Shown: piece by piece, positions 51,188-56,089 of the stretch
Layout: each line of letters begins with the position of its first letter
Numbering within the stretch: position 1 is the stretch's first letter
Origin: Massilia sp.
GTDB lineage: Bacteria > Pseudomonadota > Gammaproteobacteria > Burkholderiales > Burkholderiaceae_D
Direction of reading: 5' to 3'
NCBI RefSeq assembly: GCF_031995545.1
Contig: NZ_DAMAGA010000008.1
Span: 27,818 to 91,817 of the forward strand
DNA: 64,000 bases
Notes under the pieces: generated by a model
What the model was told of the DNA's origin: nothing
Seen by the model: the letters and a program-made list of their open reading frames with translations, nothing else
Databases searched by the model: none
Made by a program: the position numbers and the translations under genes

Positions 51188-54100
51188 ATGAACACCATGA
51201 CCGACATGGGCGAACAGTTGGACGTCAAATTGCTGCTCACCACATTGATGGCATTGAAAAAAGGCGATTTCTCGGTGCGCATGCCATCCGACTGGACCGG
51301 CGTGTCGGGCAAGATCGCCGACACCCTGAACGACATCATCGAGACCAAGCAGAAGATGGTGGAGACGGTGACCGAAGTGTCGCGCGTGGTGGGCCGCGAA
51401 GGCCACCTGACCCAGCGCGCCGACCTGCCGGGCGTGGTGGGCGGCTGGAGCACCATGATCAGTTCCGTCAACACCCTGATCGACGACCTGGTGCGCCCGA
51501 CCACCGAGATGGCGCGCGTGATCGGCGCGGTGGCGAAAGGCGACCTGTCGCAGACCATGGCGCTCGAAGTCGACGGCCATCCGCTCAAAGGTCAATACTT
51601 GCGCGCGGCGATGACCGCGAACACGATGGTGGAGCAGCTGTCTTCGTTCTCGTCCGAAGTCACGCGCGTGGCGCGCGAGGTCGGCACCGAGGGTAAACTC
51701 GGTGGCCAGGCGCAGGTGAAGGGCGTTGCCGGCACCTGGAAGGACTTGACCGACTCGGTGAACTCGATGGCGGGCAACCTGACCTCGCAGGTGCGTAACA
51801 TCGCGGAAGTGACCACGGCGGTGGCGAACGGCGACTTGTCGAAGAAGATCACGGTCGACGTGCGCGGCGAGATCCTGCAACTGAAGGACACCATCAACGT
51901 GATGGTGGACCAGCTGCGCTCCTTCGCATCGGAAGTGACGCGCGTGGCGCGCGAGGTGGGTACCGAAGGTAAGCTCGGCGGCCAGGCCTACGTGCCGGGT
52001 GTTGCCGGCACCTGGAAGGACTTGACCGACAACGTCAACTTCATGGCATCCAATCTGACGGGTCAGGTGCGTAACATCGCGGCGGTGACCACCGCGGTGG
52101 CGAACGGCGACCTGTCCAAGAAGATCACGGTGGACGTGAAGGGCGAGATCCTGGAACTGAAGAACACCATCAACGTGATGGTGGACCAGCTGTCCTCGTT
52201 CGCATCCGAAGTGACCCGTGTGGCGCGCGAGGTGGGGACCGAGGGCAAGCTCGGTGGCCAGGCGATGGTGAAAGGCGTGGCCGGCACCTGGAAGGACTTG
52301 ACCGACTCGGTGAACTCGATGGCGGGTAACCTCACGGGCCAGGTGCGAAACATCGCGGACGTGACCACCGCGGTGGCGAACGGCGACCTCTCCAAGAAGA
52401 TCACGGTCGACGTGAAGGGCGAGATCCTGGAACTGAAAAACACCATCAACGTGATGGTCGACCAGCTGAACTCCTTCGCGTCGGAAGTCACGCGCGTGGC
52501 GCGCGAAGTCGGTACCGAAGGTAAACTCGGTGGCCAGGCCAACGTGCCGGGCGTGGCCGGCACCTGGAAAGACCTGACCGACGGCGTGAACTCGATGGCG
52601 GGCAACCTGACTGCGCAGGTGCGTAACATCGCGGAAGTGACCACCGCAGTTGCGAACGGCGACCTGTCGAAGAAAATCACGGTGGACGTCAAGGGCGAGA
52701 TCCAGGAACTGAAGAACACGATCAACGTGATGGTCGACCAGCTGTCCTCGTTCGCGTCGGAAGTCACGCGCGTGGCACGCGAGGTCGGTACCGAAGGTAA
52801 ACTCGGCGGCCAGGCTTACGTGCCGGGCGTCGGCGGCACCTGGAAGGACTTGACCGACAACGTCAACTTCATGGCATCCAACCTGACCGGCCAGGTGCGT
52901 AACATCGCGGCGGTGACCACCGCCGTGGCGCGCGGCGACCTGTCGAAGAAGATCACCGTGGACGTGAAGGGCGAGATCCTGGAACTGAAGGACACCATCA
53001 ACGTGATGGTGGACCAGCTGTCCTCGTTCGCATCCGAAGTCACGCGCGTGGCGCGCGAAGTGGGCACCGAGGGCAAGCTGGGTGGCCAGGCCAACGTGTC
53101 CGGCGTGGCCGGCACCTGGAAGGACTTGACCGAGAACGTGAACCAGCTGGCGGCGAACCTGACCAACCAGATGCGCGCGATCGGTGAAGTGGCGACCGCG
53201 GTGACGCGTGGTGACCTCTCGCGTTCGATCCAGGTGGAAGCGCGCGGCGAGGTGTCCTACCTGAAGGACAACATCAACGAGATGATCCGCAACCTGAAGG
53301 AAACCACGCAGAAGAACGCGCAGCAGGACTGGCTCAAGACCAACCTTGCCCGCTTCACGCGACTGCTGCAGGGCCAGCGCGACCTGCAGGCGGTGACCAA
53401 ACTGATTCTGTCCGAGCTGGCGCCGCTGGTGTCGGCCCACCACGGCGTGTTCTACATGATGGATTCGCAGGAGTCCGACGCGCGCCTGCGCATGATCGCT
53501 TCGTACGGCTACCGCTCCAGCCGCAAGCTGCCGACCTCGTTCCTGCCGGGTGAAGGCCTGGTGGGACAGTGCGCGCTGGAGAAGACCCGCATCTGGCTGA
53601 CCGACGTACCGCGCGACTACATCGTGGTGTCGTCGGGCCTGGGCTCGGCGCCGCCGAACAATATCGTGGTGCTGCCGATCCTGTTCGAGCAGCAGGTCAA
53701 GGCCGTCATCGAGATCGCCTCGCTCGACCGCTTCACCGAAACCCACCTCTCCTTCCTTGACCAGCTGATGGAATCGATCGGCGTGGTGCTGAACACGATT
53801 GAAGCGAACAGCCGTACCGAGTCGCTGCTGACCCAGTCGCAATCGCTGGCGCAGGAACTGCAGCAGACCAACCAGGAGCTGGGCGAGAAGGCGCGCCTGC
53901 TGTCCGAACAAAACATCGAGGTGGAGCGCAAGAACCGCGAGGTGGAGCAGGCCAAGCTGGCGCTGGAAGAAAAGGCGACCCAGCTGGCGCTGTCGTCCAA
54001 GTACAAGTCCGAGTTCCTGGCGAATATGTCGCACGAACTGAGGACGCCATTGAATTCGCTGCTGATCCTGGCGCAGCAGCTGTCGGATAACCCCGAGGGC

Positions 54101-56089
54101 AACCTGTCGGGCAAGCAGGTCGAATTCGCCAAGACCATCCACGGCTCCGGTTCCGACCTGCTCACGCTCATTAACGACATTCTCGACCTGTCGAAGATCG
54201 AGTCGGGCACCGTCACGCTGGACGTGTCGGAATACCGCTTCTCGAACCTGCGCAACTACGTCGACCGCACCTTCCGCCACATGGCCGAAGCCAAGCATCT
54301 GGGCTTCCAGGTTGACCTGGCCGAGAACCTTCCTACTGCTGTGATGACCGACACCACGCGCTTGCAGCAAGTGCTGAAAAACCTGCTGTCGAACGCCTTC
54401 AAGTTCACCAGTCACGGCCAGGTGTCGCTCTCCATCAGCCTGGTGAACAGCGGCTGGACCGCCGACCACCCGAACCTGGTGCATGCGGACGCGGTGCTGG
54501 CGTTCTCGGTGCACGACACCGGCGTCGGCATCCCGGCCGACAAGCTGCAGCTGATCTTCGAGGCCTTCCAGCAGGCCGACGGCTCGACCGCGCGCAAATA
54601 TGGCGGCACGGGCCTGGGCCTGTCGATCTCGCGCGAACTGGCGCGCCTGCTGGGTGGAGAGATCCGCGTCGAATCGACCGTGAATGTCGGTTCCATCTTC
54701 ACCCTGTACCTGCCGTATAACCGCGCCGGTTTCATCAACTACGAGCAGGCACGCCAGCCGCAACCGGCGCGCCTGGCGCCGCCGCAGAACGCCCCTGCCC
54801 CGCTGGTGCCGGTGCTGCAGGAGCAGCGCGAAGTGGCTACCTTCGAACTCACCGACGCCAGCGGCGCGGTGGTCGAATATGCCAGCGTGCTGGACGACCG
54901 CGGCCTGGTGACGCCGGGCGACCCGTCGGTGCTGATCGTCGAGGACGACGAGCGCTTCGCCAAGGTGCTGCTCGACTTCGCGCGCGAGAAAAACTTCAAG
55001 GCGATCGTGACCCAGCGCGGCGACTCGACCTTGTCGCTGGCGCGCGATTACCTGCCGTCGGCGATCCTGCTCGACATCGACCTGCCGGACATCGACGGCT
55101 TCACGGTGCTCGATCGCCTCAAGCGCGACCCGAGCACCCGGCACATCCCGGTGCACGTGATGTCGTCACTGCGCGAGCGCGAACGCGCGCTGCGCCAGGG
55201 CGCGATCTCGTACATTAACAAGCCGGTGGCGCGCGAACAGCTGCAGGAAGAGTTCAAGCGCATCCAGAAGTTCCTGATGGGCGGCAAGCGCAGCCTGCTG
55301 GTGGTCGACGACGACCTGGCTCAGCGCGAGTCGATCGTGTCCCTGATCGGCAATAACGACATCCATATCGTCACCGTCGAAGACGGCAACAGCGCGCTCG
55401 AAGCACTGAACTCGTCGCACTTCGACTGCATGGTGCTGGACCTGACGCTGCCGGACATCTCGGGCTTCGACCTCCTGGACCAGATCGGCGCCAACGAGCG
55501 CCTGCGCGACCTGCCGATCGTGATCTACACGGCGCAGGAACTCAATCGCAAGGAAGTCACGAAGCTCAAGCGCTACGCCAAGACCATCGTGATCAAGGAT
55601 GCGCGCTCGCCCGAGCGCCTGCTGGACGAAACGGCGCTGTTCCTGCACCGCTCGCAGGCCAGCCTGCCGGAAACCCAGCGCAGGATGCTGGAGGAGATTC
55701 ACGCGCTCGACGGCGGCCTGGCCGGGCGTAAAGTGCTCATCGTCGACGACGACCTGCGCAACATCTTCGCCTTGTCCACGCTGCTGGAACGCCAGCAGAT
55801 GCAGGTGCTGTTCGCCGAGAACGGCCGCGACGGCATCGAGGTGCTGGAAAAGGATCCGACCATCGAGATCGTCCTGATGGACATCATGATGCCGGAGATG
55901 GATGGCTACGACACCATGCGCGCGATCCGCCGCATCCCGAAATTCCGCTCGCTGCCGATCATCACCCTGACCGCGAAAGCGATGAAGGGCGACCGCGACA
56001 AGTGCATCGCCGCCGGCGCCTCGGACTACATCACCAAGCCGGTCGACGTGGCGCAGCTGCTGTCGATGATGCGCGTCTGGCTGCACTGA
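51188..56089 (+). CDS. Cytoplasmic poly-HAMP/GAF hybrid histidine kinase with three receiver domains
   Basis: Internal ATG 51188 after aagga. No TM segments. About 14 HAMP units, GAF, a coiled coil, H-box [11 protein letters not shown], HATPase G-boxes, then three REC domains ([33 protein letters not shown]). Confidence 0.92.
51638..53293 (+). repeat. Six in-frame tandem repeats of exactly 276 nt (92-aa double-HAMP units) inside the kinase gene
   Basis: The Leu codon of L(S/R/N)SF(A/S)[20 protein letters not shown] recurs at 51638, 51914, 52190, 52466, 52742 and 53018. Copies are highly similar at nucleotide level. Confidence 0.9.

Follow-up and report, generated by a model that had tools for sequence, protein, structure and literature searches.

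A 64,000-nucleotide stretch of DNA from Massilia sp. (called the window here, always at its full length) carries at 51188-56089 the gene for a hybrid histidine kinase built on a long array of HAMP domains, and alignment and domain order place this kinase as a new, uncharacterised member of the published and abundant AskA/AskB-type family. Its domains follow the order array, GAF, coiled coil, kinase core and three receivers, its catalytic residues are intact, and its array is homologous to a structurally solved chain of four-helix bundles. Jointly, the data are very probably best explained by an AskA-type soluble kinase with the array as allosteric modulator, a CheR-derived protein as partner, and a link to the fungal group III kinases by common descent of the di-HAMP module. 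The kinase itself is an ordinary family member; it is its pairing with a CheR homologue that deserves modest follow-up, and the strict pairing of kinase and CheR lineages, decayed in the clade of the window, appears to be the only point not previously reported.

Domain architecture and family identity of the kinase

The kinase gene and its parts are the following.

51188-56089 (+): gene of the soluble AskA-type poly-HAMP hybrid histidine kinase, 1633 aa (open reading frame, translation, Pfam, homologues)
51215-51367 (+): N-terminal canonical HAMP, D1 type, aa ~10-60 (gap-free alignment to AskA from residue 44; 9TRK/9TRJ)
51368-51643 (+): first, divergent di-HAMP module, C + D2, aa 61-152 (alignment to the AskA segment)
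51644-53299 (+): six tandem 92-aa di-HAMP modules (non-canonical C + canonical D2), the last one diverged, aa 153-704
53375-53791 (+): GAF domain, aa 730-868 (Pfam GAF_2 69.4 bits, GAF 34.5 bits)
53792-54004 (+): Q/E-rich coiled-coil signalling helix between GAF and DHp, aa 869-939 (sequence comparison across loci)
54005-54721 (+): kinase core of DHp (HisKA, phospho-acceptor His949) and CA (HATPase_c; N, G1 and G2 boxes) (Pfam, motif positions)
54926-56071 (+): three receiver domains, aa ~1247-1361, ~1369-1490 and 1516-1628 (Pfam Response_reg, residue inspection)

The start codon is an ATG at 51188 with AAGGA 9 nt upstream, and the orthologue of Massilia sp. ST3 starts alike. As no 19-residue Kyte-Doolittle mean exceeds 1.54, a maximum that lies within the GAF domain, the kinase is considered soluble, in agreement with the initial annotation, which had seen no transmembrane segment. 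The protein begins directly with HAMP sequence, and no dedicated sensor domain is present upstream of the array. Pfam analysis led to six stretches of HAMP and seven of HAMP_2, GAF_2 at 730-868, HisKA at 940-1007, HATPase_c at 1055-1178 and three copies of Response_reg, and all three receivers retain the acidic pair, the acceptor aspartate (D1296, D1418 and D1565) and the conserved lysine. Pfam domains and motif residues thus agree with the previously described succession of array, GAF, coiled coil, kinase core and three receivers. The ~150 aa in front of the regular repeats had been described as degenerate HAMP-like sequence; they consist of the D1 domain and a divergent first di-HAMP module, both aligning gap-free to AskA. 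In total the window kinase has 15 HAMPs, D1 plus seven C-D2 modules.

When solved structures were searched with the array, PDB entries 9TRK and 9TRJ ('histidine kinase, Gcn4p') were obtained with E = 9e-126. They represent the 6-HAMP and 4-HAMP segments of AskA (MXAN_0712) from Myxococcus xanthus (Coles et al., Protein Sci 2026, PMC13446029), which is UniProt Q1DEE3 and has a paralogue, AskB (MXAN_6735). Residues 6-290 of the window kinase align without gaps to residues 44-328 of AskA at 71% identity, rising from 53% in the first HAMP through 61% in the divergent first di-HAMP to 86% in the first regular unit. Kinase-associated poly-HAMP arrays have been defined as an N-terminal D1 followed by C-D2 (non-canonical-canonical) repeats upstream of GAF-DHp-CA-REC(s); their di-HAMP modules are often nearly identical via intragenic amplification, they are widespread in bacteria, and the fungal group III and amoebozoan kinases share the array type (PMC13446029). 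The D1 label of the first HAMP was adopted from that study and here rests on the alignment to AskA. AskA, AskB and Sorangium Amb07 have been called 'group III HHK' (hybrid histidine kinases) and tied to development, glycerol and ambruticin responses (Marcos-Torres et al., Nat Commun 2020, PMC7643160).

All hallmarks of the AskA type are found in the window kinase, which is soluble, starts with D1 and continues with repeating C-D2 modules with the junction Gly/Trp and then GAF-DHp-CA-RECs. AskA and AskB show the same organisation with multiple receivers, and the KLGGQA and GTW junction features are common to them and the window kinase. They differ in the number of HAMPs (21 in AskA and 31 in AskB against 15 in the window) and in their host, the window kinase belonging to a betaproteobacterium without the fruiting-body development of M. 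xanthus. Moreover, the gene after askB encodes the REC-kinase AskC, whereas a decayed CheR homologue is all that follows the kinase gene in the window; for askA, no mention of its gene neighbourhood in M. xanthus was found in the literature. Chemoreceptor-associated poly-HAMP arrays, including that of Aer2 (3LNR/3VOL), are likewise soluble and concatenate canonical and non-canonical bundles with the same inter-HAMP linker logic (PMC13446029), but they are composed of HAMP types A/B instead of C/D, are of independent origin and carry a methyl-accepting output domain. The match between Aer2 and the window array is marginal (E = 0.003).

At least 8000 homologues were retrieved in a word-indexed protein search; the full-length matches listed were all bacterial and from many phyla, and the best named homologue, from Massilia sp. 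YIM B02443, shows 91% identity and, with 1909 aa, exactly three units more. A scan of one genome per species gave at least 598 loci, with Massilia sp. ST3 (96%) and a metagenome-assembled genome of Massilia kyonggiensis (95%) as best matches and with Proteobacteria, Acidobacteriota, Cyanobacteria, Planctomycetota, Verrucomicrobiota, Bacteroidota, Actinomycetota, Gemmatimonadota, Nitrospirota and more among the phyla. These best matches also assign the host to Massilia (Oxalobacteraceae). HMMER analysis of the array alone against 1.84 billion representatives at 50% identity led to 12,779 clusters at E <= 1e-3, 6,570 at 1e-10 and 1,715 at 1e-30, where representatives at 23-26% identity are probably of the chemoreceptor-associated poly-HAMP kind. 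No record identical to the kinase was found by exact-sequence look-up, and a full-text literature search for the repeat and coil motifs VAREVGT, KLGGQA and TNEEL gave nothing relevant. Since it adds another uncharacterised protein to a very large family that has been described before, the window protein changes little.

The repeats were detected by Tandem Repeats Finder with a period of 276 nt and 5.7 copies at 51625-53203 (84% matches, no indels, score 2157), and the 92-aa units start at aa 153, 245, 337, 429, 521 and 613, each of the six containing KLGGQA and G(V)(A/G)GTW. Six near-identical units had been proposed; their number was confirmed, but near-identity holds for five of them only (units 0-4, 86-97% mutual identity in protein and 83-93% in DNA), while the sixth has diverged to 66-68% identity to the others. 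Indels have shifted the first di-HAMP (aa 61-152) out of the register of the later units. Comparison of the window with Massilia sp. ST3 and M. kyonggiensis gave nucleotide identities of 0.87-0.93 for orthologous units on the diagonal and of 0.80-0.91 off the diagonal. Since this unit-by-unit orthology recurs in independent assemblies, the six-unit array is stable in these Massilia relatives and does not reflect assembly collapse. A Massilia orthologue (P0083, 91% identical) contains nine di-HAMP units, of which six match the window units (51644-53299) at 98-100% and the three extra ones are interleaved at positions 2, 4 and 6. This pattern indicates recent gain or loss of single units and not of one block. 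Judged from this comparison of six units with nine in a 91%-identical relative, array length is evolutionarily plastic; gain and loss of modules in such arrays has been described in the 2026 structural paper (PMC13446029).

Pfam also gave sub-threshold matches within the units to SpoIIID (22.7 bits) and HTH_6 (19.0 bits), the families reported for AskA/AskB. They may be explained by a poly-HAMP region that doubles as a DNA-binding module of partial HTH_6/RpiR-like and SpoIIID/DeoR-like repeats, as proposed for AskA/AskB, so that the kinase would act at promoters, and AskB indeed binds the mrpC promoter in vitro (PMC7643160). However, the scores are below the Pfam cut-offs (27 bits for SpoIIID and 28.3 bits for HTH_6), and the matches are probably spurious because they overlap the helices that form the HAMP four-helix bundles in the AskA crystals. 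In addition, the mechanism of DNA binding by AskB is unestablished, and a basic N-terminal extension of the FrzCD kind is absent from the window protein. We regard a role of the window kinase at promoters as very doubtful.

Relation to the fungal group III kinases

The initial annotation had assigned the motif of the 92-aa repeats to fungal group III (Nik1/Os-1) kinases. Real fungal sequences were obtained with a group III kinase core that served for retrieval only, as bait; this bait was validated by its matches, exon-sized fragments of 83-89% identity labelled 'osmolarity two-component system sensor histidine kinase NIK1' and 'histidine kinase osmosensor [Exophiala xenobiotica]'. From these fragments the encoding eukaryotic contigs were fetched, and the clean loci L083 and L084 were used for all figures, L081 and L082 only qualitatively. 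Both clean loci contain intron-split genes with exon fragments for HAMP/HAMP_2, then HisKA/HATPase_c and then a single receiver, without GAF, next to eukaryotic neighbours (clathrin light chain, C2H2 zinc fingers). The comparisons within the family and with the fungi rest on identity and bit scores.

A hidden Markov model of the six window units gave 135-152 bits per full unit of L083/L084, and window and fungal units share a mean identity of 71%, gap-free over 92 aa (76% in the C half, 67% in the D2 half), so the proposed fungal motif is a real one. For comparison, units within one array are 73% identical in the fungal L083 and 83% in the window. Among the HAMP-containing PDB chains besides the AskA constructs only Aer2 matched the array, at the marginal E value given above. 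The similarity between the array and the fungal units is therefore specific, as it reaches 71% gap-free while other HAMP chains barely match, and exceeds a generic HAMP resemblance. The long-read metagenome contigs L081 and L082 with a yeast-like NIK1 gene showed frameshifts and locally duplicated HAMP-coding segments, both probably being assembly errors in the repeat; their units are ~50-65% identical to those of the window.

When 78 bacterial loci were compared with the fungal units, identities of 63-72% (median 69%) were obtained and nine loci were closer than the window. By this measure the fungal signature is a property of the whole bacterial family and not special to the window gene. The kinase core gave a different result, with 38.8% identity and 133 bits between the window and a real fungal core (P0137) and 37-43% for the cores of 120 bacterial poly-HAMP kinases. 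Fragments of generic single-HAMP or GAF bacterial hybrid kinases reached a median of 54% and up to 77% to the same fungal core, but as they were pre-selected for similarity to a fungal-like query and compared by BLAST, not by phylogeny, all that these values show is that other bacterial kinases are closer to the fungal core than the poly-HAMP family is. The proposed link to the fungal group III kinases therefore applies to the array, whereas the kinase core does not cluster with the fungal cores.

Fungal group III kinases (Nik1/Os-1, TcsC/NikA, Bos1, Hik1, Drk1) also lack transmembrane segments and have 92-aa C-D2 repeats with the same motif. Their array, however, is joined directly to the H-box, without GAF, and they end in one receiver, whereas the window kinase has GAF and a coil of ~70 aa before DHp and three receivers. 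Their output runs via Ypd1 to the HOG mitogen-activated protein kinase (MAPK) pathway, and sensitivity to phenylpyrroles, dicarboximides and ambruticin is associated with them; to our knowledge, the HOG pathway is not present in bacteria. The window kinase is predicted to work like the group III kinases and shares their module, yet it stands outside that fungal family.

A closer connection would exist if the kinase were a specific bacterial counterpart of the Nik1/Os-1 osmosensor that arose through recent transfer to or from fungi, and thus an osmosensor and a phenylpyrrole/ambruticin target itself. The 71% identity to real fungal units would fit, as would the common response of fungal group III kinases and M. 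xanthus AskA/B/C to glycerol/osmotic cues and ambruticin (PMC7643160). The similarity is family-wide, however, without the window being closest, and the low identity of the core, far below that of the best generic fragments, as well as the GAF domain and three receivers argue against it. Furthermore, the composition of the gene is native to its host (GC content at third codon positions, GC3, 0.89 as in neighbouring genes), synteny is kept within Oxalobacteraceae, and in M. xanthus ambruticin binds to AskC and not to the poly-HAMP kinases (PMC7643160). We give such a transferred osmosensor almost no credence. The fungal group III signature very probably goes back instead to a di-HAMP module that bacteria, fungi and Amoebozoa share by common descent. 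The comparisons reveal this signature as that of a pan-bacterial di-HAMP module, and the short (15 HAMPs), soluble kinase from a culturable Massilia may serve as a tractable model for the array that mediates the action of phenylpyrroles, dicarboximides and ambruticin in fungi.

The CheR-derived gene downstream of the kinase

One gene follows the kinase on the same strand and is probably co-transcribed with it.

56109-56981 (+): CheR-derived gene, 290 aa, 19 nt after the kinase stop codon

Its product scores 26.6 bits with Pfam CheR_N and 21.3 bits with CheR, both under the cut-off of 27. Nevertheless, it shares 34% identity (E = 7e-46) with the product of the gene at the same position in a Pyrinomonadaceae genome (L009), which scores 131 bits as Pfam CheR; a family profile matched CheR structures with E = 1e-35 (5FTW) to 2e-21, and Massilia genome annotations list a CheR family methyltransferase. 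Despite the sub-cut-off Pfam scores these comparisons identify the gene as a clear CheR homologue. The all-alpha N-domain and the S-adenosylmethionine (SAM)-dependent methyltransferase fold of the CheR structures from B. subtilis (5FTW), P. aeruginosa (5XLX/5Y4R) and S. typhimurium (1AF7) are common to the window protein, but all three SAM motifs are altered, with EAAGVGE for the canonical GCSTGEE, ATL (FATL) for ATD and CCRALPDF for CRNVxIYF. The functions of these motifs are those known for class I methyltransferases and from the S. typhimurium CheR structure. The operon also differs from the canonical setting of CheR in that chemoreceptor, CheA and CheB are all absent. The ratio of non-synonymous to synonymous substitution rates (dN/dS) is 0.29-0.53 for the CheR-like gene and 0.12-0.19 for the kinase, indicating weaker constraint but still purifying selection; with this ratio and an open reading frame intact in all relatives, the gene is no pseudogene. 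Most likely, the CheR-like protein of the window clade has lost methyltransferase chemistry and, if it acts at all, would do so as a binding or regulatory subunit.

The same pairing was observed far beyond Massilia. The genome sample comprised 80 loci; in 16 of them, which represent at least six phyla, the kinase gene is immediately followed by one for CheR, and in the remaining ones the next gene encodes a REC-(PAS/GAF)-kinase in nine of ten sampled cases, as in askB-askC. A metagenome scan with the CheR subfamily pattern D[AGS]SFNEFxxI led to 80 loci: wherever at least 500 nt of upstream sequence was available, the last receiver of the kinase was found just upstream (66/66), and with at least 5 kb upstream di-HAMP units were found as well (34/34). 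It had been stated earlier that the neighbourhood gives no hint of input or output; this cannot be upheld, since a CheR homologue strictly linked to the kinase comes next, although that gene is the only clue to the input. In an alignment, CheR partners from distant phyla keep AGCSTGEE, YATD and CRNVxIYF. Among 96 kinase-linked CheR genes, a sample biased to window-like sequences, six are canonical, three mixed and 87 degenerate, and CheB follows three of five canonical genes but none of 73 degenerate ones. Three loci (L009 13996-17730, L042 13826-17206 and L043 14765-17484) have, after the poly-HAMP kinase, genes for a canonical CheR, for a CheB consisting of the catalytic domain only, with no receiver, and for a REC-GAF/PAS-kinase. 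Pyrinomonadaceae (Acidobacteriota), Gemmatimonadaceae (Gemmatimonadota) and Syntrophobacterales are the hosts of this four-gene operon, which by its predicted gene content is a modification operon that is complete yet contains no chemoreceptor. In other phyla the kinase pair hence exists with canonical CheR/CheB, and no literature linking CheR or CheB to kinase-type poly-HAMP proteins was found.

An alternative to a purely allosteric array would be that the kinase is part of a methylation-adapted cytoplasmic sensing module with the ancestral operon poly-HAMP kinase-CheR-CheB-REC-GAF/PAS-kinase. Reversible methylation by CheR and CheB, directed at glutamates in the Q/E-rich coil or the HAMP array, would tune the set point of the kinase as in chemoreceptors, whereas the window clade would be hard-wired after loss of CheB and decay of CheR to a pseudoenzyme. 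The adjacency of CheR in several phyla, the kinase upstream of all 66 suitable metagenome loci, the three operons with canonical CheR, CheB catalytic domain and REC-GAF/PAS-kinase and the restriction of CheB to canonical CheR genes all fit this idea. Sequence comparison across loci further showed that the coil of the window clade lacks one heptad present in most relatives and carries NQEL at the position of the NEEL common to most of them, and post-translational modification of HAMP arrays has been raised as an open possibility (PMC13446029). On the other hand, a chemoreceptor-type methylation consensus was present in none of the kinases examined, and the coil difference is suggestive only, because kinases without adjacent CheR or CheB retain the same EE-rich coil. 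CheR might just as well act on the downstream REC-kinase or on something else, published support was not found, and the sample of canonical operons is small. We therefore treat methylation of the kinase as a tentative and rather unlikely explanation.

The same reservation applies to its evolutionary extension, which we put forward as speculation: kinase-type poly-HAMP sensors may ancestrally have been methylation-tuned, with a dedicated D-x-SFNEF CheR subfamily strictly co-encoded, and in Oxalobacteraceae and related lineages CheB may have been lost while CheR became a pseudo-methyltransferase under purifying selection, presumably a non-catalytic kinase subunit. If this were true, covalent modification would be one route of input into sensor-less arrays and, by analogy, also into the fungal fungicide-target kinases. 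The strict CheR-derived pairing in any case provides a testable handle on signal entry into sensor-less arrays, a question raised with the AskA structures (PMC13446029).

Proposed signalling model and genomic neighbourhood

Returning to the AskA-type kinase with an allosteric array, the structures of AskA, the HAMP literature and PMC13446029 suggest a cytoplasmic, presumably dimeric rod, in which alternating C and D2 bundles would form a tightly packed, conformationally coupled chain. Each HAMP would invert the direction in which the helices rotate about their axes (x-da <-> knobs-into-holes <-> da-x), and with a reversal at every domain the array would therefore be a long allosteric modulator. 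Together, array and GAF would set the kinase/phosphatase balance of DHp/CA by biasing the GAF-coil-DHp junction, and the phosphate would move from His949 to at least one receiver of the same protein, which would hand it on to an HPt protein or response regulator. The CheR-derived co-operonic protein would be an obligate genetic partner of the kinase. Some points weigh against this model. Its rotation mechanism, taken from PMC13446029, is itself a hypothesis from two crystal structures and AlphaFold models. For the CheR-like protein, kinase binding or inactivity is deduced only from motif loss, the absence of CheB and dN/dS < 1, and a G-x-G remnant (AGVGE) together with a nearby SDE leaves residual SAM binding possible.

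A second hybrid kinase of 1193 aa with CHASE, PAS, HisKA, HATPase_c, REC and HPt domains is encoded at 43763-47344 (-), ~4 kb upstream of the poly-HAMP kinase. Its HPt is, by position, the nearest candidate phosphotransfer partner of the poly-HAMP kinase, which is without an HPt of its own.

Divergent from the kinase gene lies a LasR/RsaL/LasI-type quorum-sensing cassette (49023-50925), separated from it by an intergenic region.

50926-51187 (no strand): AT-rich intergenic region, 262 nt, common to the divergent luxR, with the kinase promoter presumed within
50059-50925 (-): luxR of the quorum-sensing cassette
49734-50084 (+): RsaL-like HTH gene (Pfam HTH_92, 76.8 bits)
49023-49607 (-): luxI, autoinducer synthase gene of the quorum-sensing cassette

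A scan of the region upstream of the kinase (50926-51187) for consensus sigma-70 promoters gave no site. Three Massilia relatives have luxR upstream of the kinase and one has luxI, and in Pseudoduganella an S9 peptidase gene abuts the kinase directly, with the cassette absent between them. LuxR/LuxI was rejected as functional partner of the kinase, as the cassette is lineage-specific. An open reading frame at 49604-50062 (-) was considered as RsaM-like and also rejected, since its translation looks non-coding and the real gene there is the RsaL-like HTH gene on the forward strand.

Downstream, the spacer at 56982-57091 between the convergent CheR-like and glpD-like genes contains a long nested inverted repeat, GCCGCCGACGCGTTCAACC ... 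GGTTGAACGCGTCGGCGGC, flanked by GGGTTGGC ... GCCAACCC. A simple terminator scan did not report it, but it looks like a bidirectional terminator or a repetitive extragenic palindromic (REP)-like element. Further genes observed in the window are the following.

5896-8136 (-): RelA/SpoT
16900-18537 (-): aromatic amino acid lyase
19904-21580 (+): ETF-ubiquinone oxidoreductase
22268-23860 (-): DUF4118 hybrid kinase
34901-38704 (-): AddA-like UvrD helicase-nuclease
61545-63629 (-): UvrD/Rep helicase

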